From: a virus | DNA length: 64,000 nucleotides | Direction: 5' to 3' (one strand) | Virus record (IMG/VR): IMGVR_UViG_3300021139_000002 | Span: 1-64,000 of that record | Shown here: positions 20,970 to 63,999 of the stretch, piece by piece | Position numbering within the stretch: position 1 is the stretch's first letter | Layout: every line of letters begins with the position of its first letter | The notes under the pieces: model-generated | Seen by the model: the letters and a program-made list of their open reading frames with translations, nothing else | Database searches by the model: none | What the model was told of the DNA's origin: nothing | Made by a program: the position numbers and the translations under genes

Positions 20970-21800
20970 ATGGATCATTACTCTACATTAGGCGTTAATA
21001 AAGACGCTAGCCAAGACGAAATCAAAAAAGCATATCGTAGTCTTGCGAGTAAACACCATCCAGATAAAGGTGGGGATACTGCTAAATTTCAAGAAATCCA
21101 AACTGCGTATGCCACACTAAGCGATCCGGAAAAACGAGCAGAATACGATAATCCTGCTCCTCAATTCCAAGGTGGTCATTTTGGTGGTGGTATGCCTCCG
21201 GGTTTTGAAGATATCTTTGGACAGATGTTTGGCGGACATCCGTTCGGAGGCGCATTTAGTCAAAGACATCGACAACCACAACGTAACAGAACACTAAACA
21301 TCCAAACTAGCATTACATTAGAAGAAGCATTTCACGGTAAAGACTTGATTGCTAATCTAACACTACCAAGCGGGCGTGATCAAATGCTAGAGATAAAAAT
21401 TCCCGCAGGTGTACAAGATGGTACCGTATTGCGATTGGCGGGTATGGGCGATGATAGCATACCCGGAGTACCAAAGGGCGACATACATTTAACCATCAAT
21501 GTTACATCACACAATATTTTTCAACGCCAGGGCGACGACTTAGTTAGTAGTCTCAATATCAATTGTATAGATGCCATTATAGGTAAGACCGTAAACGTTA
21601 ATACAATCGACGGTAAAACTCTTGAGCTTACAATTAAGCCCGGTACACAGCACGGACAAATTTTAGCAGCCGCAGGTTATGGTATGCCTAAAATGTCAGA
21701 TAACCGATTTAAAGGTCGTATGTTGATACAAATACAAATTGTTATACCAACTGATCTAACAGAGGCACAAAAACAAATCCTTAAGGAACATTTCCAGTAA
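20970..21800 (+). CDS. dnaJ: DnaJ class II chaperone (CbpA-like)
   Basis: J-domain HPD, G/F region, C-terminal domains, no Zn finger. Confidence 0.92.
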
Positions 21801-21808
21801 ATATTATT

Positions 21809-22336
21809 ATGCTAGATATAATTAAATTTCCCAATGAAGTATTACGACAAAAAGTCGAAGAGTTCGATTTTGAAAACTGCATCCTTGATCCAGAAAAACT
21901 AGAAGCAGAATTAATCGAAACTATGTTTGCACACGACGGCATCGGTCTTGCCGCAACACAAGTAGGAATAACGGTGCGTGTGTTTGTTATGGGTCATAAA
22001 GATAACCCAGAATCAGCACAAGCATTTTTTAATCCTATTGTGGTTAAGTGGACCGACGAAGTAGAAGATCTGGAGGAAGGATGTTTGAGTTTTCCAGGGA
22101 TGTATGCTAACATTAAACGTCCTAAGAAAATATTAGCCCGTTGGCAAAACTCAAAAGGAGAATGGCAAGAATCAGAATTTGATGGATACAACTGCAAGTG
22201 TTTTTTACATGAGTTAGATCATTTAGAAGGCATCGTATTTCAAGATCGGGTCAGTCCCTTAAAATGGGCAATGGCTGTTAAAAAGTCTAAACCCAAAAAA
22301 GTTAAAGTTATAAAAGTAAAAAGGAAATTCAAGTAA
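21809..22336 (+). CDS. def: Peptide deformylase
   Basis: GIGLAATQVG, EGCLS, HELDH. Confidence 0.95.
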   Translation: MLDIIKFPNEVLRQKVEEFDFENCILDPEKLEAELIETMFAHDGIGLAATQVGITVRVFVMGHKDNPESAQAFFNPIVVKWTDEVEDLEEGCLSFPGMYANIKRPKKILARWQNSKGEWQESEFDGYNCKCFLHELDHLEGIVFQDRVSPLKWAMAVKKSKPKKVKVIKVKRKFK

Positions 22337-24603
22337 TGTTGGAACCAGATAAAGATTTAGAAAAAATCTTTGAACATGCTGTTCAAGTAGCGTCAATTAA
22401 TAAACACGAGTATGTTACTTTGGAGCATTTCTTACTCAGTATGCTGAGTAACGATTCTTTCGTTAAACTATTAGAAGCGTTCGGTACAGACATAAAACCT
22501 TTTAAAGAAGATATCGAAAATTTCATTGCCAATGAATTGAAAGATATTGTTAACGATTCTGCCAACAAACCTAAAAAGACCGCAAGCGTTGATCGCATGT
22601 TGAACCGTGCCTTTACACAGGTATTGTTCAGTGGTCGTCAAATTATCGAGCCCGTAGATTGTTTTATCAGTATCTTCGGTGAAAGAAAAAGCCATGCTAG
22701 TTTCTTTATTAAAAAAGCAAAGATTGACAAAGATAGTTTTGTTAACTTTGTTAAGAAAGAAATTATTAAAGATGAAGAAACAGAAGAAACTACGATCAAT
22801 CCTCAAATTGAGAGAATGATCTTACAATTCTGTACAAACCTTAGTGCTCGTGCTAAAAGCAAAAAGATCGATCCAGTTATTGGCCGTGAAAAAGAGATTG
22901 AAGAAATTCAACTTGTACTTGCACGCCGAACAAAATCTAATGCGATTCTTATCGGTGATCCGGGTGTAGGTAAGACTGCTATTGCAGAAGGTCTTGCACG
23001 TAACATCTTTGAAGACAAGGTTCCTAAATTTATTAAAGAACATACGGTCTATAGTTTAGATATTAGTGCATTGCTAGCTGGTTCTAAATACCGTGGAGAC
23101 TTTGAAGAAAGGCTTAAAGCTGTACTAGCCGGACTTGAGAAAAAAGGCAAGTGTATCCTGTTCATCGACGAAGCACATATGATGAATGGTGCAGGTGCTG
23201 TAAGTGGCGGTAGCAATGATATGGCCAATATGCTTAAGGCTGCATTGTCAAAAGGTACTATTAAAGTCATTGCATCAACTACTTGGGAAGAATATCGTAA
23301 ACACTTTGAAAAGGATCGCGCCCTAATGCGTCGATTCCAACGTGTTGTTATTGATGAGCCTTCAGAAGCAACTGCTATTAAGATTATCAAAGGTCTCAAG
23401 AAGTATTACGAAAAACATCACGGTGTTAAAATCACTAACCAAGCAGTTATTGATAGTGTTAAGTATTCTGTCAAATATCTTAGCGATAAGAAATTGCCAG
23501 ACAAGGCCATTGACTTAATCGATTGTGCCTGTGCCCGATTCAAGGTACGTGACGAAGAGGGTGGCATTGTTGACCATGAAGAAATCTTGTTTGAAATTGC
23601 TAAGATGGCCAATATTCCAATTGAGACAATCAATAGCAAAGAAACAAGCAACCTTCCTAATCTTGAAAAGAATATGAAGGCCAAAGTCTACGGACAGGAA
23701 AAAGCAATCGAAAGTCTGTTAGACAAAGTGTTTATTGCACAAGCAGGTTTGAAGTCGCCTACTAAGCCAATCGGTAGTTTCTTATTTGTTGGTCCTACAG
23801 GTGTTGGTAAGACTGAAGCCGCTAAACAACTTGCCAGTAACCTAGGCATTAAGTTGATCCGCTTTGATATGAGTGAATATCAAGAAGCTCATAGTGTTGC
23901 TAAGTTTATCGGTAGCCCTCCCGGTTATGTTGGTTACGAAGATAACGCTGGTCAATTGATTACTAGCCTACAAGAAAACCCAAATTGTGTTCTATTGTTG
24001 GACGAAGTTGAAAAAGCTCACCCTAGTGTTCTAACTATTATGCTTCAATTGATGGATAACGGATTTGTTACAGGTTCAAATGGTAAGAAAGCTGATGCTC
24101 GCAATGCAATCGTTATTATGACATCAAACTTAGGTGCCGCTGATGCTGAGAAAAATAGTGTAGGCTTTGGCAACTTAGAACGTGACGGTGATCCTAAAGA
24201 TGCTGTCAACAAGTTCTTTGCTCCTGAGTTCCGTAACCGATTAGATGGTATGATTCGATTCGGCAAGTTAGACAACGATACAATGATCAAGATTGTTAAG
24301 AAGTTTATCGACGAACTTAATGCTCTTGTTAAGGATAAAAACGTTCATGTTAAACCTAATGCAGATGCTGTAGAGTATTTGATTAAGAAAGGGTTTGACA
24401 GCAAGATGGGCGCTCGTCCGTTGCAACGTACTATCGACGATATGATCAAACGTCCCCTAAGTAAGGAAATCTTATTTGGAAAACTTACAAACGGTGGTGT
24501 TGTTGAAATTACGGTTGAAGACAATGCATTGAAACTTAATGTCATTGACATTTTGCCAGTAGAAAAGGCAAAAGATGCAGTACAAGAAGCAGATAACACA
24601 TAA
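22336..24603 (+). CDS. clpA: ATP-dependent Clp protease ATP-binding subunit ClpA
   Basis: Two AAA modules ([16 protein letters not shown]), no M-domain, VGF ClpP-docking loop. Confidence 0.92.
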
Positions 24604-25682: not shown

Positions 25683-25750
25683 TTCCAAATAAACTTTTTG
25701 TAATAAATACTCTATTATAGAGTGTTATACTCGCGACTTCATATTTGGAA
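25683..25750 (+). promoter_or_regulatory. Late promoter within leader hairpin
   Basis: TTCCAAATA / TATTTGGAA outer arms, inner ACTCTA/TAGAGT; TAAATA 25704-25709. Confidence 0.5.
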
Positions 25751-25756
25751 TAGCCA

Positions 25757-26125
25757 ATGTTACTAAAAGAATTTTTCGGAAAAGGTGAAGATGTTGTTAA
25801 AAATCTTCATAAAAACAGAGACGATAAAAACATATCCGACGATCTGTTCTGGTACATCATAGACCACGACAAATTACACAAGGACTACTTTTTCCCTATT
25901 GCAAGAAAAATTGCCAAAAATAAGGACAAAATAGACAGAGAACAAATGGTCAAAGAGTTCTTACCAATGGTTTTAAAGGGATGTAAAGAGTATTACGAAC
26001 ACAAAAAAATGAAGGGTAAATTAGGACAGGTATTTTCTAAAGAATTACGTCAAGATATGTGCGAAAGATTACTAGATCATTATAAAGATGATGTAATTAA
26101 TGACAAATATAAGGTAGGCGTATAA
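25757..26125 (+). CDS. Hypothetical protein with capsid-targeting-like N-terminus
   Basis: MLLKEFF start; late promoter upstream. Confidence 0.7.
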   Translation: MLLKEFFGKGEDVVKNLHKNRDDKNISDDLFWYIIDHDKLHKDYFFPIARKIAKNKDKIDREQMVKEFLPMVLKGCKEYYEHKKMKGKLGQVFSKELRQDMCERLLDHYKDDVINDKYKVGV

Positions 26126-26126
26126 C

Positions 26127-29100
26127 ATGATCTTAAGAGAATTCTTCAAACGCACACTATTAGAAGGCGGCAATTTAGAAATTGACGGAGCACAAGCACA
26201 GCACATTGATCTTAAGGTGCATAATCGTGGATACATTGTTCCTATCTTAAGTCAATTACTTACTAGTATTAACTCAGAATTTAAACAAAGTCAAGGCAAC
26301 GACTTATGGAATCCAAAAGTTTTAAAAAGTCGTAAGTACCTAAGCGGGTCTAGTCTACATTTCTTCGACACAGACATTCCAGACGAAGAATTTGAACGTG
26401 TCAAACCTAAAGTAGGTGACATTGACACACAAGTTAACAAGGCAGCAGAACAACATCTAGCACAATGGCTTAATGGCGTAAAAGGTCAAGTTGTAGGTAA
26501 CGCCAAGTTCTTAGGTTTTAGTAGAGGTAACGAACAATATAGTAGCTTATGGGAATTAACAGACCCTCCTGTTAAAGTACAGATTGACTTTGAATTTGTC
26601 GACTATAATGAAAAGGACGAACCTACTGACTGGTCTGCATTTAGCCATAGCAGTAGTTGGAATGACTTGAATGAAGGTATTAAAGGCGTTTTCCATAAAT
26701 GGTTAATACAGGCTTTTACAAAACTATCAACACAAGAATTTCTACTACGTAAAATGGTAGGTCGTGGGAAAGCACGAGTAGAACAAGATGTTCCAACAAC
26801 AGATAACATGTTCTCATTTGCTGTAAGTAGCAAAGAGGGTGGTGGACTACGTCCTAAATACGAACCAGTAGCAGATGCCAAAGGTCGTCCACTTGTAATA
26901 GACGGTTTACCTGTCATGCGAGCATTGCCTGCTAGTGGTTACGAAAAAGACATAGGCGCAATGTTCCAAAATATTTTTGGTAAACGTGTTGATCGTAAAA
27001 CACTAAACAAGCTACTACCCAAGACATGGAGTTTTACTGGCTTATTAGATGTAATGAATTTAATACTACCGCCAGAAGAGAAAGAACAAGTACTAGATGC
27101 GTTTGTTGATAAACTATTTGCGCCAGGAGCACAAGGTCTATACAAAGGCGATGCACAGCGTGATATGGTAGAAAAGAATGCCGCACTGAACTATGCATTA
27201 AAAACTCTTAAAACAACTGCTCCCAAGAACCTTGAACAGATGCGTCAAGACTATGTTAAGAATTATAAAGTAACATCTGAAGGTCCTATTGGTTTAGACA
27301 AACCAATAGAAGAAGCAGAAGGCGATCAAGCACAGCCGGCAGTTAAAGCACAACTACGTAAAGGCATGCCTCACTTACGTGATTTGAAACCTGCTGACTT
27401 TTTAGACCTAATTGACGAACTTCGTAGCGAAGGTGGTCGTTTTAAACTACAAAATATTCCGTTAAATGTTAAGATCGACGGCTTTGGTGGACGTTTTGGT
27501 AAGGATGCTGAAGGTAAACCTTTCATGGGTACCAGTAATACTCCTCCAAAATACGAAGCAGGGTTTGTCAAGTACCATCAAGAGAAGGGTACAACTGATC
27601 CGGAAATACTAGGCCGTGCTGCCAACTTTGATAAACTATTCAACGAAATGATGAAGGCTATCAAAACCGTTGACAGCAAACTAGGTCCAGATGCATTAAT
27701 GGATAAACAGGTCAGTTGTGAAGTATTGTTCTTACCATTTGCTACACAAACAGACGAAGGTAAGTTAAAGTTTGTAGGTATTGAATACGATCAATTACCA
27801 AAAGGTGTTGATCTTGTTCTAGTTCCTTATCGTGTTGTTGATGCTAGCACAGGAGAAGAATCTCCTGAAGGTGAAAAGATTGTACAAGCATTGACCAGTT
27901 TAGGCCAGAACGGTAGTGTTATGTTTATGAGCAATAGACTTACGCAAAAAGAAGGGCTTGATGTTACAGAAATTATCAATCCGTTAGAAAATTTAGAAGA
28001 ACTTAAAAAAATTGTTAGCGATACAGCAGGTAAACGTGATCGTGCTAGCCTACAATTACGCAGAGAAGTTGAAGATAAATTAAAACCTGTACAAATTGCT
28101 TTAGAAAAAGCCATTGACGAAGATCCTAACATTGTGGGCAAAGATAATCTAGGACAAGACTATGAAGGTATTGTTATTAATAGTCGTCTTGGTCCTATTA
28201 AAGTTACAAGTCAAAAGCAAAAAGATATTATTATTAAAAAGAATGCTGCCAAGGCTGCGGCTCGTGCAGAACAACCTAGAGAAAACGCAAACAAAACTGC
28301 TGTGGTTGCCATAGGTAGTTTTGTTGGACATATTGGTCACGAGCAACTTTGGGATTATACAATTAAGAAAGCCGCAGAAGTAGGCGGAGATCCTTATTTG
28401 TTTATCGGTAATGCACAAGGTAAAGATGATCCTATTCCTCCAAGTGTTAAAGTTGAAACATGGCATAAGATGTATCCAAAGTATGCTAAGAATATCAGCA
28501 CGGTAACGCAAGAAGGCGGTAGCCTAATGCAAAAGATCAAGCACGAATTGATCAATCCATTACCAGGTAAACCTCCACGCTACGACAATATTATCATTAT
28601 GGTAGGTGAAGATCAAGCCAACATGAATATTGCTAATGCACTTATGAAGGCGGTTAACAAGTTTCAAGGTTATGAACATGTTAAGGTCAGTTTAGAAGTA
28701 ACACCGCGTGGTACTGGTATGAGTTTTACCAAACTACGCAACATTCTTAAAGATCCAAATGCTACACCTGAACAACAATATGCTGTTTGGGCGCAAGGAT
28801 TTGATGAGAAGAAATTAGGTAAACCTTGGATTTTACATTTAATGGACATTACAAGAAAAGGTATGGGTATTACACAACAACCAAAAGAACCCCAACAACC
28901 GGCACCACAAGTTCAACCTGTTGCAGAAGTAAGAGTGTTCAATGCATTAATTCGTCCACGCATAATTTCAGAATTATCTAACGAAAAGCTAGGACAATAC
29001 AAGAAAGCGGCAAGTGCAGATGCTAGTGCTGCCGATAAAGCAGGCAACTATGAGCGTGGTAACAAACGCTTCAGTGGTATTGTTAAAGCAACTAAGAAAC

Positions 29101-29567
29101 AATTTGCCAACGATGAAAAGAAACATCAAGGTGTGAATGAAAAGATGATGCCAGCAAGCATGTTCGCAGGATCAAAGAAGAATAAATTAGGTTCAGCAGG
29201 ACAATGGAAGAATACTGGCTCAAGTAAGAATCGTCCAGCACGCCAAGGTGATCTAGTTGGTGGTGCTGAAGAAAGTGTACAAAGAGAAAACGATAACATG
29301 AGTGGTGGTTACGCAAAGAACAAACCAGGTCTAGGTCAACAATCGTATGTGAGTAAAACACAAGCACCTATGGCACCTATGGAAGAAAAAATTAAGGGTG
29401 TTGACGGTAAAGCCTGCTGGAAAGGTAAACGCTACGCCGGAAAAGTGAAAAAAGCAGATGGTACTTATAAGGATAAGTGTGTTCCTGTAAGTGAAGATAT
29501 ACAAAATATTATGGATGTCTTAATTAACAAGATTATAGTAAATGAAACAATATCGAATAACAAGTGA
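26127..29567 (+). CDS. Multi-domain polyprotein: Pol-beta-type nucleotidyltransferase + ligase-like (KxDG) domain + HIGH nucleotidyltransferase + short basic modules
   Basis: SGSS…GDID; VKIDG…EGIVI…K; GHIGH…MSFTKLR; N-terminus MILREFF…LLE. Confidence 0.65.
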   Translation: MILREFFKRTLLEGGNLEIDGAQAQHIDLKVHNRGYIVPILSQLLTSINSEFKQSQGNDLWNPKVLKSRKYLSGSSLHFFDTDIPDEEFERVKPKVGDIDTQVNKAAEQHLAQWLNGVKGQVVGNAKFLGFSRGNEQYSSLWELTDPPVKVQIDFEFVDYNEKDEPTDWSAFSHSSSWNDLNEGIKGVFHKWLIQAFTKLSTQEFLLRKMVGRGKARVEQDVPTTDNMFSFAVSSKEGGGLRPKYEPVADAKGRPLVIDGLPVMRALPASGYEKDIGAMFQNIFGKRVDRKTLNKLLPKTWSFTGLLDVMNLILPPEEKEQVLDAFVDKLFAPGAQGLYKGDAQRDMVEKNAALNYALKTLKTTAPKNLEQMRQDYVKNYKVTSEGPIGLDKPIEEAEGDQAQPAVKAQLRKGMPHLRDLKPADFLDLIDELRSEGGRFKLQNIPLNVKIDGFGGRFGKDAEGKPFMGTSNTPPKYEAGFVKYHQEKGTTDPEILGRAANFDKLFNEMMKAIKTVDSKLGPDALMDKQVSCEVLFLPFATQTDEGKLKFVGIEYDQLPKGVDLVLVPYRVVDASTGEESPEGEKIVQALTSLGQNGSVMFMSNRLTQKEGLDVTEIINPLENLEELKKIVSDTAGKRDRASLQLRREVEDKLKPVQIALEKAIDEDPNIVGKDNLGQDYEGIVINSRLGPIKVTSQKQKDIIIKKNAAKAAARAEQPRENANKTAVVAIGSFVGHIGHEQLWDYTIKKAAEVGGDPYLFIGNAQGKDDPIPPSVKVETWHKMYPKYAKNISTVTQEGGSLMQKIKHELINPLPGKPPRYDNIIIMVGEDQANMNIANALMKAVNKFQGYEHVKVSLEVTPRGTGMSFTKLRNILKDPNATPEQQYAVWAQGFDEKKLGKPWILHLMDITRKGMGITQQPKEPQQPAPQVQPVAEVRVFNALIRPRIISELSNEKLGQYKKAASADASAADKAGNYERGNKRFSGIVKATKKQFANDEKKHQGVNEKMMPASMFAGSKKNKLGSAGQWKNTGSSKNRPARQGDLVGGAEESVQRENDNMSGGYAKNKPGLGQQSYVSKTQAPMAPMEEKIKGVDGKACWKGKRYAGKVKKADGTYKDKCVPVSEDIQNIMDVLINKIIVNETISNNK

Positions 29568-29850
29568 AAATAGTCAGGCTATGGATAGCAACGATGATTG
29601 TATATTGCCTCCAGATGACTATACTCACCAATTAAAACGACTGCAATATTTAGGCGGACTCGGCGGCGAAGCACGACTACAAGAATATAATGCTCACCAA
29701 AATGCTATAAATAAAGGTAGTAATATTAGTGTAACAGGCATGGAAAAAGCCACACTAATGAAGGATAACAATATTAAACCAGGAACACCAGAATGGTTTC
29801 AACTATGGTTTGCTAGACAATTCATGACTGGCGAAAAACCTATTAATTAA
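29542..29850 (+). CDS. Conserved hypothetical protein
   Basis: IKPGTPEWFQLWF motif. Confidence 0.7.
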   Translation: MKQYRITSENSQAMDSNDDCILPPDDYTHQLKRLQYLGGLGGEARLQEYNAHQNAINKGSNISVTGMEKATLMKDNNIKPGTPEWFQLWFARQFMTGEKPIN

Positions 29851-29886
29851 GGTTCAGCAATCCATTTCTAACAGATAAATAAATGC

Positions 29887-29997
29887 ATGTTAGAAAACAA
29901 ATACACTAAAATATATAACAGCATAATATCTCGATCCAAAAATCGAAAAATAACCAGTGATTATTATGAATCTCATCATATTATCATATATCAGTAG
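29887..29997 (+). pseudogene. Truncated HNH homing endonuclease remnant
   Basis: MLENKYTKIYNSIISRSKNRKITSDYYESHHIIIYQ* resembles the N-terminus of phage HNH endonucleases (…E.HHIIP…GG); stops just after HHII. Confidence 0.65.
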
Positions 29998-30006
29998 GAA
30001 AATAAA

Positions 30007-30453
30007 GTGGATCAATTAGTTCAAATAACAAGAATTGCCTTTAGCAGTACATTTAGTTTTTATGTAAAAACTCACTCATTCCATTGGAATGTAGAAGGCA
30101 GTGATTTCTTTGAATATCACAAACTATTCGAAGAAATCTATAACGAAGTCTACGAAGCAATTGATCCATTTGCAGAAAATATTCGCAAATTAGATGCGTA
30201 CATGCCTACCAGTTACCACACACTAAGTATGCTGTCAAAAATTGAAGATGAAGATCGTGTACCTTCTAAAGAAGAAATGGTTAAAGAGTTGTTAATGGAC
30301 GGCGAAAAACTATTGTTAATTTTAAAGAAAAACTACGATCTAGCAGAAGCAGCTAGTGAACATGGACTAAGTAATTTCCTAGCAGAACGTATGGACGCAC
30401 ATAAAAAACATGCATGGTTTTTAAGATCCAGCATCAAAGGTGAAATGCAATGA
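30007..30453 (+). CDS. dps: Dps-family ferritin-like protein
   Basis: K.HSFHWNVEG..F…H.LFEE.Y……D..AE.IR; K.AWFL. Confidence 0.93.
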   Translation: MDQLVQITRIAFSSTFSFYVKTHSFHWNVEGSDFFEYHKLFEEIYNEVYEAIDPFAENIRKLDAYMPTSYHTLSMLSKIEDEDRVPSKEEMVKELLMDGEKLLLILKKNYDLAEAASEHGLSNFLAERMDAHKKHAWFLRSSIKGEMQ

Positions 30454-30821
30454 GAGCAAAAGAATTTGTAAACGAAGGTAGAGATGCGGCAGGTGCTAAA
30501 AACATGCCAGGTGATCACGTTACTACAATTCCAAATGCTCACTACTTTCCAGATTTAGATAACAGCAGTGGTTATCATGCGTACCGTTGGGGTGTTGCAC
30601 TTGCGGGAGCACCTGATATTCCTATGCCAACAGACGGGCCTACTGGACAAAAATTAGTTACTATAGGATACACTGACGGCGACGATGTTATCATCGATAG
30701 TGCATCAAAGCTGTTTGGTGCTAGAAAAATTAGATTAACACCGCGTGGTAGTACCGAACTAAAAGATACATATACTACAAGTCCTGTAAGTAACTGGAAT
30801 TCAAGGAACAAAAAGAAATGA
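30450..30821 (+). CDS. Putative internal head protein (CTS-like N-terminus)
   Basis: MRAKEFVNE start resembles T4 capsid-targeting sequence MKTYQEFIAE. Confidence 0.6.
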   Translation: MRAKEFVNEGRDAAGAKNMPGDHVTTIPNAHYFPDLDNSSGYHAYRWGVALAGAPDIPMPTDGPTGQKLVTIGYTDGDDVIIDSASKLFGARKIRLTPRGSTELKDTYTTSPVSNWNSRNKKK

Positions 30822-33022
30822 ACAACGAATTTAAAGTAAAAAAATTTAAAAGCGCAACCGTTTATGTATTAGAATCTGCAACAGGGGGTGGTACTAGTGC
30901 AGGTGGTATTGCAAGTGTGAGTGGCGCAATGGGTGGAGTTCGCAAGCGTGGCGGTAATCTTATTGTTCAAGACGATAACAATTCTAAGAAAGTTCCTGCT
31001 ACCAAACCACGCAACTTTGTAGCCAAGAATGCCAAGATGGGCGGTGCTGGTGCTCACAAGGATAAGAAGAAGGCTGCTAAACAAGGTGATGTTAAGCATA
31101 AGGCCCGTGAATTGGATGTGGCGGAAGAAAGTGATAAACAATTCGCACAGCGTATGAAGAAGAAGGCAGCACAACCTCCAACAAAGGGTATGAGCCAAAA
31201 GGAAAAAGAAGATAAAGGCTGGGCGAAACCTAAAGAGCAAGGTGTGGCGGAAGAAGCAAGCCCTATGATTAAACCGCCCACTAATAGATTCGATAACAAA
31301 CAAGAAGCATTTGCCTACGCTCGAGAACACGGCGGTAAAGTATTCAGAAGCACATACATTGATCCCAACACCGGAAACAAAAACATAACCTTTGTTGTTA
31401 AAAAAAATCAAGGTGTGGCGGAAGGCTTAGACGATAGTGCTAGTGCTACCCCAGCAAAAAACGAACGCGGAAGATTCACAGCGTGGGATGATGATGAACC
31501 GATGCGTTTGAAATGCGAAGATGGTGAGTTTAGAACCATACAAGAAATCAATATGCTTAGACAGAAAATAGGAATGAAACCTTTTTCTATCAAAGGCGAA
31601 CAAGGTATGGCGGAAGGCGCCAAGTTTGGTGCTTACTATTCTGAGAAAGTAGCACAAGAAATATTTAACAAGCGTCAAGATATCACGTCCGAGGACGAGG
31701 TGCTAAATCAAGCATATCACATTGTTTCTAACGAATTAGGTCAAAAGACTGCTCGTTATAAATTTAACTACGATGAAGATTTCTCAAGTGATGTTGTTTC
31801 TAATTACTTCTGGCTAAAGAAACAAAGTCAAGGTGTGGAGGAAGAACTCGTTGGACAGCCACAATCTGGACATCCAGGACAGGCAGGTCAAGGATCATAT
31901 AGTGCTGCCGAACATACAGCAAAAACTCAACATCGTCTAGGTTCACATACATATACGGTAACGTCAGAACAAGACAATGATGGCGATTTCTATTACTTCA
32001 TTTATGAGAATGGAGAAAAGGTATTTTACGGTACTGAAATGGATAGCGACGAATTATCTGTTCATGAAGATAAGTTAGGTCCAAAAATCAGTAGTGCTTT
32101 GATAGATGAGCATAAAAAAGCAACAGCACATTTATATAATGATGAAGATGATTATGATGATGTTGACGAAGGCGGGTATGCACACGGTTTTGCAGATCCC
32201 AATGCTCCTAGATTAGGACAGCGCCAAAGAGATTATGACAGAGGAGAAGATGAACCACAAGGTATGTTTGCTGTCGTTATCAACGGTCGTCCTTGGAAAG
32301 AGTTTACCAGTAATAAAGCATTTCAAGTAGCAAAAACTATTGCTTCTAAAAATCCAGATAAGAAAGTACAAGTACGTTGGCCCAATGGTACTTTAAATGG
32401 TATAAACGAAGATCATAGCACAGCAACACAGGGCTACGGACAAGGCGGATATGATACTTACGCAAACGGACGCCATGGTAGAGGAGTTGCAGAAAATCCA
32501 GAATGGTATAATGATGAAGCTAACGGTATGACTACTGCTCAACTAAAGAGTCTGGTTAAACATGCCGCTAAGTTGCGTCGAGCAGTTAAAGCCATGCAAG
32601 CACAGGGCGATACATTAGAACCTTGGCAACAAAGTAAAGTTACCAAAGCTGCTGATTATCTAGATGCAGTATTCAACGCTGTAGATGACAATCACGATAT
32701 GGGAGAAAGTGCTCCTAAAGGTTGGGAAGGCACGGTTAAGGCTATGAAAAAGCATAAAGAAATCGATAATCCTTATGCGTTAACAAACTGGATGAAAAAT
32801 AAAGGATATAAGAGTCACAAGAAAGAAGACGCTTATATGGAACAACTGGCTAAACAAGTAGCAGAAAAATTAAATCCTAGCGCACCAGTTGATGTGTGGG
32901 TTCAAGATTTCCAAAAGGCTGATCCTAACAAGTATCACCAGTTTAAAAATAAAACTCCAGAAAAGAAAGCACGTATGGCCGCCGCGGCACATTATGCTGC
33001 CAATGAACCTAGTAAAAAATGA
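30818..33022 (+). CDS. Modular polyprotein of short cassettes separated by QGVAE-type linkers (putative internal head protein)
   Basis: DVAEE, QGVAEE, QGVAEG, QGMAEG, QGVEEE, GVAEN, DVDEG, INED, MGES, VAEK junctions between unrelated segments. Confidence 0.7.
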   Translation: MNNEFKVKKFKSATVYVLESATGGGTSAGGIASVSGAMGGVRKRGGNLIVQDDNNSKKVPATKPRNFVAKNAKMGGAGAHKDKKKAAKQGDVKHKARELDVAEESDKQFAQRMKKKAAQPPTKGMSQKEKEDKGWAKPKEQGVAEEASPMIKPPTNRFDNKQEAFAYAREHGGKVFRSTYIDPNTGNKNITFVVKKNQGVAEGLDDSASATPAKNERGRFTAWDDDEPMRLKCEDGEFRTIQEINMLRQKIGMKPFSIKGEQGMAEGAKFGAYYSEKVAQEIFNKRQDITSEDEVLNQAYHIVSNELGQKTARYKFNYDEDFSSDVVSNYFWLKKQSQGVEEELVGQPQSGHPGQAGQGSYSAAEHTAKTQHRLGSHTYTVTSEQDNDGDFYYFIYENGEKVFYGTEMDSDELSVHEDKLGPKISSALIDEHKKATAHLYNDEDDYDDVDEGGYAHGFADPNAPRLGQRQRDYDRGEDEPQGMFAVVINGRPWKEFTSNKAFQVAKTIASKNPDKKVQVRWPNGTLNGINEDHSTATQGYGQGGYDTYANGRHGRGVAENPEWYNDEANGMTTAQLKSLVKHAAKLRRAVKAMQAQGDTLEPWQQSKVTKAADYLDAVFNAVDDNHDMGESAPKGWEGTVKAMKKHKEIDNPYALTNWMKNKGYKSHKKEDAYMEQLAKQVAEKLNPSAPVDVWVQDFQKADPNKYHQFKNKTPEKKARMAAAAHYAANEPSKK
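31115..31846 (+). repeat. Dispersed in-frame direct repeat CAAGGTGTGGCGGAAG (5 copies)
   Basis: Copies at 31115 (partial GATGTGGCGGAAG), 31238, 31409, 31601 (1 mismatch), 31829 (1 mismatch). Confidence 0.85.
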
Positions 33023-33756
33023 GACTCTACGAATTCGAGCAAAGTGATTATGTAATCAGAAATCGTGATAAACTAGATCACATTCTGCTCGAACTCTGCC
33101 ACCATGTAATTGAAGGACAACAACATGATCCAGTAAAATATGGAATGGTTGCGGCCTGTGTCTTAGACCCCGAAAACCGCAAAGTCTTTGGTGTAAACGA
33201 GGCGGCCAAAGATGGTACCAGACGCCACGCAGAAAGAGTTGCAATGGATCGTTATGTAGAACACTATGGCGATATTCCAGAAGGTAGTATCATACTAACT
33301 ACCTTAAGTCCGTGTAGTGACGATATGGATGAACGCTATGGTGAAAGTTGTCAAGATTTAATCAACAATAGTAATGTTCGAAAAGTATATTGCGGTTATA
33401 CAGATCCTACCCAACATGATACACACAAAGAATATACCTTAGAAGAAACTAGTAATGAAGGTATTATCAGCATGTGTAAAAAGTTTGCTGATACATTTTT
33501 GAAAGACTCAGTAAATGAAGCAGCCAATCCAGCACAGCAAGCCGCTATTGCTATCGCTAAGAAAGAAAAACAAGCACAAGAAAACTTTGCCGACGGTAAA
33601 CACCCTGGTCGCAAAGGCCTTGCCAAGCGTAGCGGAGTAAATACCAAAGCGTCAGTTAGCAGTTTGAGAAATACTGCTAAACATAGTTCAGGTGAAAAGG
33701 CACGCATGGCACATTGGTTGGCTAATATGAAAGCAGGAAGGGCTAAAAAGAAATGA
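33019..33756 (+). CDS. Zn-dependent nucleotide/nucleic-acid deaminase fused to short basic modules
   Basis: HAE…TLSPC…C deaminase motifs; modules after VNE and AQE. Confidence 0.75.
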   Translation: MRLYEFEQSDYVIRNRDKLDHILLELCHHVIEGQQHDPVKYGMVAACVLDPENRKVFGVNEAAKDGTRRHAERVAMDRYVEHYGDIPEGSIILTTLSPCSDDMDERYGESCQDLINNSNVRKVYCGYTDPTQHDTHKEYTLEETSNEGIISMCKKFADTFLKDSVNEAANPAQQAAIAIAKKEKQAQENFADGKHPGRKGLAKRSGVNTKASVSSLRNTAKHSSGEKARMAHWLANMKAGRAKKK

Positions 33757-34196
33757 GAGCACAAGAATTTATTATCGAAGGAATGTTGCAAGAAGCATTA
33801 GATAAACAATTCGACATAATCGAATCTATGATAGAATATTGGGCCAAACATCATGGTGTAGATAGCGAAGTAATTTGGGAAGACCTTGAAGAAGTTGACG
33901 ATGAAGATCTACTGAGTGAAGCTGAAGCCTGGCAAAAGAAATCTGGTAAAAACAAAAACGGTGGCTTGAACAAAAAAGGTGTAGCAAGTTATCGTCGTAG
34001 CCATCCTGGTAGCCATTTACAAACTGCTGTAACTACCAAACCTAGCAAACTTAAAAAAGGTAGCAAGGCTTCTAAGCGCCGTAAATCATTCTGCGCTCGT
34101 ATGAAAGGCATGAAGAAACATCGTGCAGGCGCCAAAACCAAAAGAGATCCAAATAGTCGCATAAACAAAAGTCTCCGTAAATGGAATTGTGAGTAA
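33753..34196 (+). CDS. Putative internal head protein with basic C-terminal domain
   Basis: MRAQEFIIE CTS-like start; acidic pro-region, then AWQKKSGKN..GGLN…RRKSFCARM…W.C. Confidence 0.65.
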   Translation: MRAQEFIIEGMLQEALDKQFDIIESMIEYWAKHHGVDSEVIWEDLEEVDDEDLLSEAEAWQKKSGKNKNGGLNKKGVASYRRSHPGSHLQTAVTTKPSKLKKGSKASKRRKSFCARMKGMKKHRAGAKTKRDPNSRINKSLRKWNCE

Positions 34197-43775: not shown

Positions 43776-44236
43776 AATGGTTATTAAATACACTCGAGCG
43801 TTTAGGTCGTAAACGTGTTGTGATGGATAGAATTAACGATGAACCTTATCTTGAACGTTATTACCTTTTTCTTAAAGATAGAAAGCGGTTCCCTTTCAAT
43901 ATGTTTCTTCACCGTTTCCTTAAGTCAGATCCCGATGATGTGCATGATCATCCATGGCCTTACGCTACACTTATCTTAAAAGGTGGTTATTATGAATGGA
44001 CTCCTATATTCGACGGAGAAAACAAAAAAATCGGAGAAGTACGAAAATGGAAGGGCGCTGGACACTTTCGTACTTGTAGTGCTCGCTCTTATCATCGTAT
44101 TGAGCTTGACCCTAGCGTAGAATGCTGGACATTGTTTATGCCTGGTCCACAAACCCGTGAATGGGGATTCTTATACAAGAATAAGTGGATGCACAACGAC
44201 GAATATCTTAAAGGTCGAGCTGAGAGAATTTTGTAA
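43772..44236 (+). CDS. Cupin-fold metalloprotein
   Basis: HDHPW…GGY.E and YHRIEL…WTLF. Confidence 0.75.
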   Translation: MKWLLNTLERLGRKRVVMDRINDEPYLERYYLFLKDRKRFPFNMFLHRFLKSDPDDVHDHPWPYATLILKGGYYEWTPIFDGENKKIGEVRKWKGAGHFRTCSARSYHRIELDPSVECWTLFMPGPQTREWGFLYKNKWMHNDEYLKGRAERIL

Positions 44237-45245
44237 TTCTCTGATCATCTTCATTAATGCAGGAAATCATTCCGCATTTTTGAGGACCTTGAGGGGGCAT
44301 CCATCCAGGATGCCATATATTGCCTAATGCAATGTTATTGCAATTACTGCCGGATACCCAACCTTGTCCGCCTATATTCAATCTTTCAACTCCAGCATTA
44401 CATAGTTGTCCTACGTAACTAGGATGCTTACTATAGGTATCTTCATACCTTTCATCCCAAGTAGTTTCTTGAAAGTAAATCTTTTCTTCTACTAATTTAC
44501 TTGTCTCCACGGGCGGTGGCGGTGGCGGTGGTGGGGGAGGAGGTTCCGGAGGCGGTGCTTCTGCTAGTCTACGTCGCATTTCTTCTTCGCGACGTTTTTG
44601 TTCTTCAATACGTTTTGCACGTTCTTCTAAAGTACGTTGACGCATTTCTTTAGACATGTTATAAAAATCAATTTTTTGCAAATCTTCGTATGAATATTTG
44701 AGCATACCTGCACTAGGATCTGCATTAAAATACAATTGAGTTTTCGAAACCAACATATCAATTGTATCTTCTAACTCAAGCACTCTATCAATATCTTCTT
44801 GTACATTGGTATTTCTTATAGGCGCACTAATTGTAAATTTTTTACCTTTGGCATTAAATGTATCTACAATATATTTTATCAATGCAGGATTTTGCCAATG
44901 GTGATATGTTAGCACTAAGTTATCTACATACGGTTCTAACGCCCACCAATCTAACCAAAGTTTACCGCCATTAGTATGTAGTGTAACACTATCGCCGTTT
45001 GCTCTACATAATTTTAAAAATTGAGCAATATAATCCATATCTAACGGTTCGCCGCCGTTAAAAATCCATTCTATACTTCTGCCCTGTTTCTCTTTATAAG
45101 AATCTATAAGTAATTGAGCAATACGTAGATATTCGTTTATTTCGGGAGGAAGGCCGCCTCCCCTAGAATGAGTTGGACAATACTCACATTGGGCTTTGCA
45201 GTAATCGTTTAATGTCCAAGATATAATTGTTTTTAAATTGTCCAT
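44208..45245 (-). CDS. Radical SAM enzyme with Cys-rich C-terminal (twitch-like) domain and poly-Pro insert
   Basis: CKAQCEYC, GGEP, TNG; C-terminal C.AG…C…C….C. Confidence 0.85.
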   Translation of the reverse strand: MDNLKTIISWTLNDYCKAQCEYCPTHSRGGGLPPEINEYLRIAQLLIDSYKEKQGRSIEWIFNGGEPLDMDYIAQFLKLCRANGDSVTLHTNGGKLWLDWWALEPYVDNLVLTYHHWQNPALIKYIVDTFNAKGKKFTISAPIRNTNVQEDIDRVLELEDTIDMLVSKTQLYFNADPSAGMLKYSYEDLQKIDFYNMSKEMRQRTLEERAKRIEEQKRREEEMRRRLAEAPPPEPPPPPPPPPPPVETSKLVEEKIYFQETTWDERYEDTYSKHPSYVGQLCNAGVERLNIGGQGWVSGSNCNNIALGNIWHPGWMPPQGPQKCGMISCINEDDQRITKFSQLDL

Positions 45246-45250
45246 ACGGT

Positions 45251-45299
45251 CCTTGACAAGTCTAAATAAAGTATGTATAATGTACTTATCTTATCAAGG
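45251..45299 (+). promoter_or_regulatory. Sigma70 + late promoter inside an inverted repeat shared by divergent genes
   Basis: TTGACA 45253-17-TATAAT; TAAATA 45263; CCTTGACAAG / CTTATCAAGG arms. Confidence 0.7.
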
Positions 45300-45305
45300 C
45301 GTACA

Positions 45306-45590
45306 ATGGATTTAGACTCAAAAACTAAAGAAGTAATGGACATTCTACAAGAAGAATGTGCAGAGGTTATACAGGCAGTTAGTAAAATTAGCCGATTTGG
45401 AATTGATAACCTTAAACCAGGCAAACCAAAAACTAATCGAGAACATCTCGAGGAAGAACTCGGAGACATGTTGGCTATGATCGATATCTTAAAAGAAAAA
45501 GGTATCGTGTCCGGCGCTTGTTTAGAAGCAGCCAAATATGCCAAAATTGAAAAACTAAAAAAATGGTCAAACATATATGAGCAAAATTAA
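45306..45590 (+). CDS. mazG: MazG-like NTP pyrophosphohydrolase
   Basis: EECAEV…EELGD motifs. Confidence 0.8.
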   Translation: MDLDSKTKEVMDILQEECAEVIQAVSKISRFGIDNLKPGKPKTNREHLEEELGDMLAMIDILKEKGIVSGACLEAAKYAKIEKLKKWSNIYEQN

Positions 45591-46431
45591 AATCGCAGAA
45601 CTCTTTTACTCAATACAGGGCGAAGGTCGCTATATGGGCGTTCCCTCTGTATTTCTTCGCACCTTCGGGTGTAACTTTAAATGCCAAGGGTTTGGCATGC
45701 CTCGTGGAGAACTTAGCAATGAAGCAGAAAATATTGACCCGTCTAAGTACACCGAGTACAAATCGTTACCTTTGGTTAGTACAGGTTGTGATAGTTACGC
45801 TTCTTGGGATCCTCGCTTTAAGCATCTATCTCCCCTTCTTTCTACTGATGCGATTGCCACTGCTATTGTTGATACGCTACCGTACAAGGAATGGCGGGAC
45901 GAACATCTCGTAATCACAGGCGGCGAGCCATTGCTAGGTTGGCAAAAGCAATATCCAGATTTACTCAATCACGAAAAGATGCGTGGCTTAAAAGAAATTA
46001 CTTTTGAGACAAACGGCACAATGCGTCTAACCTCAGACTTCACACAATTCATAAAAGACTGGGCATGGGATCATGAAAAATCACTAATGCGACAGGTGAC
46101 ATTCAGTGTTAGTGCTAAACTTCCATGTAGCGGTGAGCCATGGAAAGATGCTATTAAACCAGAGGTTGTTAAATCATATCAAGATACTGGTTCATATGTT
46201 TATTTGAAATTTGTTATTAGCACAGAGGAGGACCTTAAAGATGCTGAACGAGCAGTTGAAGAATATCGTGCGGCGGGCTTTACTGGTCCTGTGTACATTA
46301 TGCCTGTTGGTGGCGTTGAACGGGTGTACACTCTTAATAATAGATCAGTAGCAGAGATGGCAATGCGAAAAGGATGGAGGTATTCAGACCGACTTCAAGT
46401 GCCACTATTTAAAAACGAATGGGGAACCTAA
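45577..46431 (+). CDS. queE: 7-carboxy-7-deazaguanine synthase (radical SAM)
   Basis: E.FYSIQGEG..G.PSVFLR.FGCN..C…CDS, TGGEP, ETNG, KFV. Confidence 0.9.
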   Translation: MSKIKIAELFYSIQGEGRYMGVPSVFLRTFGCNFKCQGFGMPRGELSNEAENIDPSKYTEYKSLPLVSTGCDSYASWDPRFKHLSPLLSTDAIATAIVDTLPYKEWRDEHLVITGGEPLLGWQKQYPDLLNHEKMRGLKEITFETNGTMRLTSDFTQFIKDWAWDHEKSLMRQVTFSVSAKLPCSGEPWKDAIKPEVVKSYQDTGSYVYLKFVISTEEDLKDAERAVEEYRAAGFTGPVYIMPVGGVERVYTLNNRSVAEMAMRKGWRYSDRLQVPLFKNEWGT

Positions 46432-63800: not shown

Positions 63801-63999
63801 TAGCTATTTCTTGGTATGAACCGTCAGCTTTTTCATATAAACGACAAATTCCGTAGTATAAAGAATTATAATTAACAGGATCGCCTACGACCAATACATT
63901 ATCGCCTTTTCTCTTGCTGATTGCATATCCAAGTTGTTCGTGTGAAGATAATGACAATGTAGGAGTTGTATTATAATTATTAATTTTTTCGTATACCTC
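57862..63999 (-). CDS. Very large virion structural (baseplate wedge-like) protein, 5' end beyond window
   Basis: >2000-aa frame open to the window edge; FG-GAP-like propeller repeats (VGAP, FG..I); YINEVKPYHT. Confidence 0.75.
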   Translation of the reverse strand, partial: EVYEKINNYNTTPTLSLSSHEQLGYAISKRKGDNVLVVGDPVNYNSLYYGICRLYEKADGSYQEIARWRIGTSYSYVPTGFGSTIVYDDTPFTGTRYGLVFVGAPLVTHGIVKISSINTNIFSEGVFAYVGNPDYNNSTNFGKFIFVERNTKNKLVLIGANNAVYAYEIKDNGGTISVTYLSKVASELNITALSGSEDATIIAIGNGDLVKIYNKSLTNIQTINIANTSINVSPDGTYMFVGNADGSYGQVSVYKNVNGTFVLDQTLYNPVAGQGMHFGSSMDITIGNDTLIVSATGINRTLNTTFDSSNMTFDGNITKIKGTEVGSGTIYVYYKKSARFVYSQELTDSYILTTHGNNFAKSIVVDDTEVIAGAPAIDNTSISSGFFVFDKIDTTTNSLSKIVEQDTFTDISPISRIAIIDTEKEKIINYLDLFDPLKGKIPGIAEQELTYKLISDPAIYSIGVAGTNNNTDKNWLDDHVGELWWDLSTAKYVWYEQGDLEYRKNNWGKLFPGATIDVYEWVSSTMLPSAWAAIADTPAGLAKGISGQPKFVDNSVISVKQVYDTITNTFSNVYYFWVKNKVTVPLHKDRRLSSYAVASAIADPSAYGLSFASIISKDAIMLSNVGNIPVGNTISINIAQDSSSSSVVTPRHTQWKLLQEGDAVNMPPLSLEQKLIDSLLGHDKFGNIVPDIALSERTRYGTSVRPRQTMFNDRHAALRNIIEFSNNVLINIPVTGKYSFKNLNAQEEIPNQYGNTYDNLVEDNASLTSIDTSGYRQAIINCTPNANGSIELVQIADAGYGYGTLNPVYSSTGTVIGYEGPTFTIANDLYETIFDNATTTFDDLRTRFLTRDVPNTYSSGFEMKTVVNEHGSIISASIIHPGNGFSSKFRLIARPQTVIVQSDDTYNGKWSQYEWDYVTYSWNRAHTQSYDTTLYWDYVDYASVDYNQYQIYTAVIGSPYELSSVSTVEGQYVKVNNGGDGNYIVLRKAADGVLGSYGDGYDLVYKQNGTIQFNSDIWDVSNSLLNWDNLNTYDQTLYDQTPDTELEYIIKALKNDLFINELKINWNLLFFKAVKYALTEQKLLDWAFKTSFINVTNTSGELYQPPVYKLNDSSFFEDYINEVKPYHTQIRNFTTEYSVLEPTYTDIIEQDRVSTIELKFDRTSYVGQSGGFEVVDTFIADGITSEFVLGWVPAFNKTGISVKINSVISLSSEWTIDYYEQPYNGYSKKFAKLVFVNNAPANNATITIKYKKSADILNATDRILAYYTATNGMIGLDLTVLMDGISYPGTLVDGQRFVNPYGGVYPYSNIEGGTWNADGRVSALGTNPEDITLSGELGFINTASGHAPEELLPGFAIDTLGINVYTQGPAQAPTIVTGYFDVSPSADLQYYPLPMLPVTVDSISVILNGTILECAPIMPGALSFEIDWVGQRLIIPPQVSSGKLSYSMVGVGGGTNNFGLIDSESVITTNSSVGIVSSGYLANIVKDVYVTVNGIPTSDYVLDVSANNRGPAVVTVNGLDSSQGNAVQAWFFTESHSNFNQIIDQQFVASSTSSMTTFTLNVEGDYIVEKIVNGVANRLLTSKNEYTIVGSTLTISVHLNPGDLIKVVTFIDTTGKMGVDIENFVGNPNRRFIMNRPVSNDIYMWVSIIHQNDTVSGLINGIDYILLDDNVTVQISDSWNISNLDTVEIISFKSPQYIDTVLGYRIFNDLLGHTTFTRLSKANTTYLTKPLAPDDTEIYVADATVLTAPTETTPGVVLINAERIEFNQITVASGGYKLDEITRGTLGTGVSPHLLYGSKVVDQGTLQVLGNPEAVSIQYIFTTATNSVYHISTSSYTSPVPGTTATIASAGIKLVDSLPYNDQLEVYYGGRQLRKSPIFVHDTTIAYDSIDESYIQGTTSDLSTQSAMLNDAYILVSSGQVWQYVGNRSTNVQYPGWVYTGLTELPQEFTVAHNNTQTIQLNIVVESNIELAIVKKSALSNTFNTVVSPGVTLPLWESSTTIAGQLKQFPTELPNSYYYEGDIVLRDQNGVPLTDENGSILTGRT

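Follow-up and report, generated by a model that had tools for sequence, protein, structure and literature searches.

The subject of this study is a single long gene within a stretch of viral DNA of 64,000 nucleotides, referred to here as the window, which forms the first 64 kb of the 106,021-bp IMG/VR record IMGVR_UViG_3300021139_000002. With 106,021 bp at an estimated completeness of about 30%, the record must come from a large phage. The gene is read without interruption from position 26127 to 29567 on the plus strand and encodes a protein of 1146 amino acids (aa), which, judged from its motifs and structural models, almost certainly holds three nucleotidyl-transfer folds, namely a Pol-beta/PolX-like nucleotidyltransferase (NTase), a ligase-type domain and a domain of the HIGH superfamily. 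They are preceded by a short leader that resembles the capsid-targeting sequence (CTS) of phage T4 and followed by a basic tail, and the whole is called the polyprotein below. Its parts are the following, a slash within a motif marking a predicted cut:

26127–29567, plus strand: polyprotein gene, 1146 aa, stop codon counted in
26127–26165, plus strand: leader MILREFFKRTLLE (residues 1–13), predicted CTS, cut after E13; predicted local distance difference test (pLDDT) below 50; likeness to the T4 CTS
26166–27314, plus strand: Pol-beta-fold nucleotidyltransferase, similar to PolX and terminal uridylyltransferases (TUTases), residues 14–396; catalytic G74 S75, D98 D100, D154/E156
27312–27314, plus strand: E396 of PIEE/AE, predicted protease site in the disordered NTase–ligase linker, pLDDT 46–60
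27315–28241, plus strand: ligase-type (covalent) nucleotidyltransferase domain, residues 397–705; motif I K449-I-D-G, III E532, IV E680-G, V K692; no oligonucleotide/oligosaccharide-binding (OB) domain
28284–28901, plus strand: HIGH-superfamily nucleotidyltransferase, residues 720–925; H735-I-G-H738, S866-F-T-K-L-R871
28926–28928, plus strand: E934 of QPVAE/V, predicted protease site after a P/Q-rich linker 3' of the HIGH domain
28929–29564, plus strand: basic tail of low complexity, made up of short modules in shuffled order, with a C-x-C element that resembles a hairpin and a helix at the C-terminus (VSEDIQNIMDVLINKIIVNE); phrog_26930

An earlier, sequence-only reading of this DNA had pointed out the open reading frame (ORF) and its motifs, and both are confirmed: the protein contains the Pol-beta signature G74-S75-S76...G97-D98-I99-D100, the ligase motifs V447-K-I-D-G452 and E680-G-I-V-I684, and the HIGH motifs G734-H-I-G-H738 and S866-F-T-K-L-R871. 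Conservation was assessed by aligning 31 fused homologues with 36–64% identity. Invariant in all 31 are G74, S75, D98, D100, D154 and E156 of the Pol-beta signature, K449, D451, G452, E532, E680, G681 and K692 of the ligase motifs I, III, IV and V, and H735, G737, H738, R861 and R871 of the HIGH signature, in which conservation is at least 90% at S866 and T868. The quoted motifs are not due to chance, because the catalytic residues, on whose conservation in homologues the proposal of that reading hung, are invariant. AlphaFold2 models were generated from alignments of natural relatives for residues 1–400 (pLDDT 92.4) and 400–930 (pLDDT 91.9), and in searches with Foldseek and other fold comparisons they match the Pol-beta fold, the NTase fold of RNA and DNA ligases and the HIGH fold, so that the idea of three different nucleotidyl-transfer folds stands. 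The three catalytic domains are intact and probably active.

Sequence searches returned few matches to known families. The Pfam scan of the whole polyprotein gave only FAD_syn below the threshold, and the PHROGs scan gave ‘cytidyltransferase’ and three families of unknown function. No match was obtained with phmmer for the whole protein against the PDB sequences, and a profile of the 31 sequences found there only the HxGH segment of FAD synthetase (E 3e-4) and low-complexity noise. None of the NCBIfam models matched any of the three domains, and no Pfam family matches the first two, the NTase and the ligase-like domain.

The N-terminal NTase domain (N-domain) combines the signature of the Pol-beta superfamily, hG[GS]...[DE]h[DE]h with a third carboxylate, with an alpha/beta palm fold; the spacing of 22 residues from GS to DxD is longer than usual. 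In 45 relatives that consist of a stand-alone N-domain, G74, S75, D98, D100 and D154 are invariant and E156 is at least 90% conserved. Pol-beta-fold NTases made up nearly all of the top 50 matches in an all-against-all VIA search, with TUT7 at Z 8.1 (root-mean-square deviation, rmsd, 3.9; 112 residues aligned), OAS2 at Z 7.7, palm plus thumb of Pol beta at Z 7.2 (rmsd 4.4, 175 aligned) and PolX of African swine fever virus (ASFV) at Z 6.6 (158/176 residues aligned). The PolX palm-plus-thumb alignments, at Z 6.5–7.2, are no better than those of the TUTases, and there is no Pfam match. In Foldseek, the best matches were Pol beta, lambda and mu and ASFV PolX with weak E-values, from 6e-3, and the BFVD structures matched were PolX proteins of giant viruses and uncharacterised phage proteins. 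CCA-adding enzymes rank below TUTases and PolX, which leaves the label ‘CCA-type’ given to this domain in the sequence-only reading with no specific support. A Pfam scan of the N-domain and 44 relatives matched no NTase family. Membership in the RlaP family was considered and rejected at the level of hidden Markov models, since PF10127 was matched neither by the window protein (E up to 1) nor by 45 family members (E up to 0.5).

The second domain possesses the lysine of KxDG, motifs III, IV and V and the NTase-domain fold of the covalent nucleotidyltransferases. In the VIA search it aligned best with Naegleria Rnl5 (5cot; Z 10.6, rmsd 3.7, 193 aligned), REL1 of T. brucei (Z 9.8, 204 aligned) and T4 Rnl2 (Z 9.3), and DNA ligases (Z 7.8–8.7), Rnl3, Trl1 and Rnl1 rank below these three; Foldseek listed Trl1, Rnl3 and Rnl5 with E-values of 9e-5 to 7e-4. 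The structural match is confined to the NTase domains (residues 1–233 of Rnl2 and 136–339 of Rnl5), and the alignments with DNA ligases also end with this domain. Neither the C-terminal accessory domain of Rnl2 nor the N-terminal one of Rnl5 is matched in the ligase region, and Pfam RNA_ligase is unmatched. ATP-dependent DNA ligases are defined by an OB domain and motif VI. Both are absent from the model of residues 400–930, in which motif V is followed by a single linker helix and then by the HIGH domain. By its modelled fold, the ligase-type domain appears closest to the nick-sealing RNA ligases.

The third domain shows HxGH and an ISxTxxR-type motif on a Rossmann-like fold. It aligns with PPAT at Z 13.4 over 151/161 residues and, in the VIA search, with NadM, NMNAT and NaMNAT at Z 11.7–12.1, and it matches the cytidyltransferase family phrog_3041 with an E-value of 7.6e-13. 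The curated NCBIfam models of NMNAT and PPAT did not match it at E-values up to 1. At the level of the fold, the domain thus looks PPAT-like and NMNAT-like about equally, and with this tie and the miss of the curated models it can be assigned to the HIGH superfamily rather than to a single enzyme.

The ends of these domains carry motifs that recall the processing known from T4, where the CTS consists of the first 10 residues and is removed by gp21 (PMC9026906), which cleaves after I/LxE (PMC12991175). The start of the polyprotein, MILREFFKRTLLE/GGN, resembles MKTYQEFIAE/A of T4 IPII and IPIII; IPI starts with MKTFKEF (T4 sequences read from NC_000866). Among the 45 stand-alone N-domain relatives, 17 start with M-GGN and all others but two have a leader of 6–20 residues, in which [LI]xE always stands directly before the invariant GGN. 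In 45 IMG/VR homologues, P1 of the leader is always E, and P3 is L in 26, I in 13 and V in 6 of them. Within the fused protein, [LI]xE[AGS] is kept at only two aligned positions of the 31 homologues, around residue 13 (26/31) and around residue 396 (23–24/31), the linker around E396 being otherwise variable. At E934, P[VL][AS]E is present in 11/11 close homologues aligned and [PTAL][VLIM][AGS]E in 28/50 distinct IMG/VR homologues; among those without the latter motif, some have IKE/A followed by an embedded MRAxEF leader. The linker between the ligase-type and the HIGH domain has no conserved Glu site in the 31 fused homologues.

Of the cut sites suggested in the sequence-only reading, IEE/AE (E396) and PVAE (E934) are therefore conserved, and IISE (E949) is not. 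A division into three separate enzymes, as suggested there, does not hold up: there is no conserved site between ligase and HIGH domain, and the pair also occurs as a two-domain protein in other phages. No peptidase domain was found in the polyprotein by the Pfam and PHROGs scans; processing is predicted to take place in trans.

The C-terminal 220 residues have a net charge of +17, are of low complexity and are poorly conserved, apart from the conserved C-x-C element at the end. The tails of homologues consist of differing modules with QG[VM]AE/[GA] between them, including lysozyme-like and ParB-like modules, DUF6321 and the C-terminal motif of a deaminase ORF encoded in the window. Two longer relatives (P0042 and P0044) carry an additional weak second NTP_transf_2 and DUF6934, and P0042 also Amidoligase_2, which means that the enzyme string is extensible.

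The polyprotein gene belongs to a cluster of genes with similar starts, which contains the following further features:

25703–25709, plus strand: ATAAATA element resembling a promoter (core of the T4 late promoter), 54 nt upstream of ORF 25757, with which the cluster opens
25757–26125, plus strand: 122-aa ORF with the CTS-like start MLLKEFFGK(GE), stops 1 nt before the polyprotein gene
30450–30821, plus strand: 123-aa ORF with the leader MRAKEFVNE/G, cargo cluster
30818–33022, plus strand: second polyprotein of 734 aa with four QG[VM]AE junction motifs, cargo cluster
33019–33756, plus strand: 245-aa ORF with the leader-like start MRLYEF and a cytidine/dCMP-deaminase domain (PF00383, E 1.3e-10)
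33753–34196, plus strand: 147-aa ORF with the leader MRAQEFIIE/G, the closest to the T4 CTS, and DUF6321

A start of the form M[KRILF]x1-3[EQ]F is found in 6 of the 229 ORFs of the record; five of them lie in 25757–34196 and the sixth between the portal and the protease gene. The 122-aa ORF shares 48–56% identity with the N-terminal 110–122 residues of two homologues of the polyprotein (P0007 and P0021), in which it is joined in frame to the polyprotein with the junctions ...KLME/GGN and ...SLNE/GGN. Genes of this family are seen to fuse and split exactly at the predicted cleavage sites. The N-terminal 152 aa of the 734-aa ORF are weakly similar to the tail of the NTase polyprotein, and its four QG[VM]AE motifs compare with three elsewhere among 493 ORFs. 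In addition, this ORF has a VLE/SAT site at residue 19, and its modules belong to no known family except for a weak match to DUF7230. The 245-aa ORF, which also shows a weak match to the RibD deaminase, may be a candidate for a head-packaged deaminase, judged from its start and domain. The DUF6321 with which the 147-aa ORF ends is also the C-terminal module of many PHROG families that are otherwise unrelated, and at one related locus (L069) it is part of the polyprotein tail. A leaderless Dps/ferritin-like gene (30007–30453, plus strand) lies within the cluster of leader-bearing genes. As for the ATAAATA element, 13 of its 18 sites in the 106-kb record are located 11–60 nt upstream of a gene start on the same strand; it is promoter-like by position and gives weak evidence on timing. 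Scans for sigma-70 promoters and terminators were uninformative.

The record also encodes a head module in T4 order, with the portal, a small CTS-like ORF, a Peptidase_S77 protease, a scaffold-like gene and the major capsid protein. The protease is of the gp21 type (PF03420, 93 bits, record positions 93080–93508), and the capsid, scaffold and protease proteins have LxE/[GS] sites placed as in T4. At record positions 91873–92994 (L090 5873–6994), in the interval from the small leader-bearing ORF to the protease, lies a gene for an acidic protein of 373 aa with at least six tandem DEDMDE/[GSA] repeats, which is likely, from its sequence and position, to be a prohead core protein with many cleavage sites.

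Relatives of the polyprotein are numerous. A library of representatives at 50% identity holds 1937 of them, including many full fusions, N-domain plus ligase, ligase plus HIGH and several hundred stand-alone N-domains. At least 211 loci were found in IMG/VR, with full-length relatives in at least 80 loci; the comparison of genomic context covers 80 of these at least 211 loci, across which synteny is conserved, reflecting relatedness and not function. Megablast gave no match to cultured phages, and in tblastn no record covers more than 47% of the polyprotein; the fused form is carried by no cultured phage. Its parts occur there as separate genes. In Xanthomonas phage BUDD, the NTase, a ligase-like protein (E 1.8e-32 against the profile) and a HIGH protein are encoded by one cassette, in which a gene of no known family for 334 aa (L002 7023–8027) separates the gene for the NTase from that for the ligase-like protein; an end-healing enzyme, or another partner that is otherwise missing, could be encoded by it. 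In Vibrio phage pv27 the N-domain gene lacks a leader, and five genes downstream of it lies the gene for a 484-aa protein (P0152) in which the ligase-like motifs KTDG...EEGVIL are joined to a HIGH domain. Alignment of the ligase–HIGH part with P0152 by hhalign was limited to motifs IV/V (E 0.13), so that this is a likeness of architecture and motifs and not demonstrated orthology, and a profile search of phages CPt10 and pv27 found no ligase–HIGH relative. Taken together, the library fusions, BUDD and pv27 indicate that ligase and HIGH domain travel together and that the NTase travels with both.

The presence of a relative in virions is documented for Campylobacter phage vB_CcoM-IBB_35, whose gene 1-56 starts with MKLSELMFILE/GGN and is homologous over the full length (probability 100% and E 1.4e-53 in hhalign); its product is among 38 virion proteins detected by ESI-MS/MS (electrospray ionisation with tandem mass spectrometry), with a coverage of 17% (PMC3322345 supplement). 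Head targeting and processing of the window's polyprotein at Glu sites are quite probable. The suggestion of a virion-delivered protein cut at Glu residues, made in the sequence-only reading, agrees largely with the T4-like leader, the sites at E13, E396 and E934, the gp21-type protease, the head module in T4 order and the mass-spectrometric detection in IBB_35.

We propose, with a probability of roughly 0.5, that the protein is a polyprotein carried as cargo in the head of a T4-type phage and provides fill-and-seal enzymes for nucleic-acid repair. The 13-residue leader would act like the T4 CTS and bring the precursor into the scaffolding core, and the gp21-type protease of the phage would cut after E13, E396 and, probably, E934, yielding an NTase of 383 residues, a two-domain ligase–HIGH enzyme of 538 residues and basic tail peptides. 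These products would remain in the head and enter the cell along with the DNA. The injected NTase would extend a damaged 3' end by one or a few nucleotides, after which the nick would be sealed by the ligase domain, the always-attached HIGH domain supplying or activating an adenylylated donor or end. The substrate would most likely be RNA, for example tRNA cut by abortive-infection nucleases of the host, before phage genes are expressed. As to function, we lean slightly towards the repair of nucleic-acid ends, and, if repair it is, somewhat more clearly towards RNA than towards DNA. Fill-and-seal is favoured because the pairing of an NTase that extends 3' ends with a nick-sealing ligase has three precedents (RlaP/RNA ligases, RET2/REL1 and PolX/ligase), and RNA is made the likelier substrate by the nearest folds of the ligase domain, those of Rnl5, REL1 and Rnl2, and by the missing OB domain. 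Among the functions put forward in the sequence-only reading (RNA or tRNA repair, NAD or nucleotide-signal counter-defence), repair of RNA ends is, in view of these nearest folds, the guess with better support. A more specific version would couple the chemistry of ligase and HIGH domain, the latter adenylylating a terminal phosphate or making the donor, so that sealing proceeds without a separate kinase or phosphatase; such a kit, preloaded in the heads of T4-related freshwater phages, would reverse the cutting of tRNA, mRNA or DNA by defence nucleases before gene expression. This version is a long shot.

Several points weigh against the proposal. Packaging, cleavage and every activity of the 1146-aa protein are things that we infer. 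The gene lies outside the head module, amid genes for DnaJ, peptide deformylase (PDF), a ClpB-like protein, Dps and DNA polymerase. An ATAAATA element stands before the DNA polymerase gene as well and is therefore not proof of late timing, and the canonical T4 late promoter TATAAATA is not enriched in the window, with 2 sites against 8 expected. The supposition that leaderless relatives are confined to phages without a gp21-type protease had to be rejected, as BUDD, pv27 and CPt10 all have PF03420; leaderless relatives in protease-bearing phages mean that packaging is an option and not obligatory in this family. For the N-domain, the fold matches are of middling quality (Z 7–8) and do not separate RNA-tailing enzymes from PolX, from OAS/CD-NTases or from NTases that modify proteins or antibiotics. 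Most anticodon nucleases leave ends that require healing, and the polyprotein contains no kinase, phosphatase or 2',3'-cyclic phosphodiesterase (2H) domain to heal them; the lack of an end-healing enzyme is a real gap in a reading as RNA repair. There are no tRNA genes in the 64-kb window. Finally, we know of no precedent for a HIGH domain in nucleic-acid repair.

The same head cargo might instead act on DNA, with PolX-like gap filling and nick sealing of the injected genome, possibly damaged by sunlight or nucleases, and maybe with LigD-like incorporation of ribonucleotides that would give an Rnl2-like ligase a 3'-ribo nick. Injected proteins do accompany DNA, and in structural comparison the N-domain gives its longest alignments with PolX palm and thumb (Pol beta 175, ASFV PolX 158/176), in line with the top Foldseek matches to Pol beta, lambda, mu and PolX and with the giant-virus PolX proteins in BFVD; some Atlas neighbours carry DNA_pol_B_palm, which is a lead only. 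However, the Z scores of PolX do not exceed those of the TUTases, and the helix-hairpin-helix (HhH) and 8-kDa DNA-binding domains are absent. DNA ligases match the ligase domain as well (Z 7.8–8.7), but its best matches are the RNA ligases Rnl5, REL1 and Rnl2, and it has neither OB domain nor motif VI. We consider DNA as the substrate unlikely. More doubtful are effectors for takeover or counter-defence that act on small molecules or proteins, where an NMNAT-like activity would rebuild NAD+ after attack by an NADase, the NTase would nucleotidylate a host protein and the ligase-type domain would cap or destroy nucleotide signals. The tie of the HIGH domain with NMNAT, NadM and NaMNAT (Z 11.7–12.1) would suit this, as would the counterparts in BUDD and pv27, which match NMNAT models best, far below the cut-off; yet PPAT fits the HIGH domain at least equally (Z 13.4), the NCBIfam models of NMNAT and PPAT miss the domain of the window, and no NAMPT or Nudix partner was seen within the window. 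OAS, CD-NTases, ANT and MenT match the N-domain at similar Z, the Pol-beta NTases of polyvalent proteins were predicted to modify proteins (PMC5512222), and Campylobacter phages package the N-domain alone, no ligase–HIGH relative having been found by profile search. Against this stands the recurrent fusion or adjacency of NTase and ligase-type enzyme in distant phages, which points to nucleic-acid ends.

An ordinary cytoplasmic multi-enzyme that stays out of the head, with a merely incidental N-terminal peptide and incidental Glu linkers, would fit the position of the gene among early- or middle-type genes and the existence of leaderless relatives. It would hardly explain the either/or pattern of M-GGN or [LIV]xE/GGN together with two position-specific [LI]xE[AGS] sites, and the clustering of five leader-bearing ORFs, fusion and fission precisely at these sites and the IBB_35 homologue in virions speak against it as well, which makes it improbable. 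The cargo polyprotein with repair enzymes remains our preferred reading.

If packaged polymerase-like and ligase-like enzymes are confirmed, some phages inject a capacity for nucleic-acid repair, which would make sense as a response to defences whose cutting of tRNA, mRNA or incoming DNA is immediate, and a coupled ligase–HIGH kit that reverses such cuts would represent a new class of injected counter-defence. To our knowledge, few kinds of enzymes are known in phage heads, among them ADP-ribosyltransferases, virion RNA polymerases, anti-restriction proteins and lysins. As two of the three enzyme domains lie outside Pfam, they are candidates for new enzymology of RNA or DNA ends and for reagents. 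The grammar of [LI]xE junctions, with fusion and fission at the sites, would offer a route to predicting head cargo from the sequences of T4-related phages.

Some further observations concern the surroundings of the gene. A DnaJ gene (J and C-terminal domains), a peptide deformylase gene and a gene for a 755-aa two-ring AAA+ ATPase of the Clp/Hsp100 family follow each other at 20970–24603 on the plus strand, and most of the 80 related loci in IMG/VR keep this order. At 44208–46431, a radical-SAM gene on the minus strand adjoins a QueE-like gene on the plus strand (phrog_2076, E 3.5e-56), which hints at 7-deazaguanine chemistry; near the N-domain genes of other phages there are QueE and a queuine tRNA-ribosyltransferase-like gene (BUDD) and a radical-SAM gene (CPt10). 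A giant ORF of about 3933 aa occupies 57862–63999 on the minus strand and runs to record position 69663, and an ORF of 2113 aa is located at record positions 97611–103952.

Each part of the polyprotein can be compared with known systems. RlaP adds 1–2 nucleoside monophosphates to damaged RNA 3' ends and is found beside RNA ligases (bioRxiv 10.64898/2025.12.29.696909; PMC7824862). As in RlaP (PF10127; Burroughs and Aravind, 2016; Carruthers et al., 2025), a Pol-beta NTase is genetically coupled here to an enzyme of the ATP-dependent RNA-ligase type, with a logic of restoring the 3' end and then sealing; the association takes the form of a fusion in the window protein and many relatives and of a shared cassette in BUDD. 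Unlike RlaP, the protein has no PF10127 match and no kinase, phosphatase or 2H domain, and it has an additional HIGH NTase and head targeting. ASFV PolX with its ligase and bacterial LigD likewise couple a minimal PolX-like enzyme of palm plus thumb to a ligase, whereas here the ligase lacks the OB domain and there are neither a PolX profile match nor HhH domains.

In structure, the ligase domain matches Rnl5, Rnl2 and REL1 best and shares motifs I, III, IV and V with them, and REL1 is also paired with a Pol-beta-fold NTase. In trypanosomes, REL1 works with the TUTase RET2 in RNA editing. In contrast to these ligases, with which only the NTase domain is common, a HIGH NTase takes the place of the accessory domains, Pfam RNA_ligase gives no match and motif I reads KIDGFGGRFG. 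The HIGH domain resembles PPAT (CoaD), NMNAT/NadM/NadD and the N-terminal domain of FAD synthetase in its Rossmann-like fold (Z 12–13.4, about 150 residues), HxGH and ISxTxxR-like motif, and differs from them in that no NCBIfam or Pfam model reaches the threshold and that it is permanently fused to a ligase-type domain.

The polyvalent proteins (Iyer et al., 2017; PMC5512222) are alike in being single long phage polypeptides with unrelated effector domains, predicted entry with the DNA and shuffling of modules, and ParB-like and lysozyme-like modules occur in the tails of the homologues here. In that survey, the minimal Pol-beta NTases of firmicute elements are predicted to modify proteins, a zincin-like metallopeptidase (MPTase) is embedded in about a third of the proteins, and, in the passages considered here, RNA ligases are mentioned only as not associating with 2H domains. 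By comparison with what is described there, the set of PolX-like NTase, RNA-ligase-like domain and HIGH domain is different, there is no embedded peptidase and processing in trans by the head protease is predicted. Similar in their delivery are the internal T4 proteins IPI, IPII and IPIII and Alt, which have a short leader of the MKTYQEFIAE type ending in [LI]xE with a small residue after it, a protease of the gp21 type (Peptidase_S77) and a head module of T4 order in the same genome, basic tail modules and several such genes in a cluster. T4 Alt ADP-ribosylates RNA polymerase. While the T4 cargo consists of small basic proteins or an ADP-ribosyltransferase, the protein described here is a string of three nucleotidyltransferases over 1146 residues, with internal sites and predicted packaging. 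The logic of delivery is therefore already known from the T4 internal proteins, Alt and the polyvalent proteins; for the combination of cargo, and likewise for the two sequence families that lack Pfam models, no published description was found in the literature, and the combination appears to be a new one.

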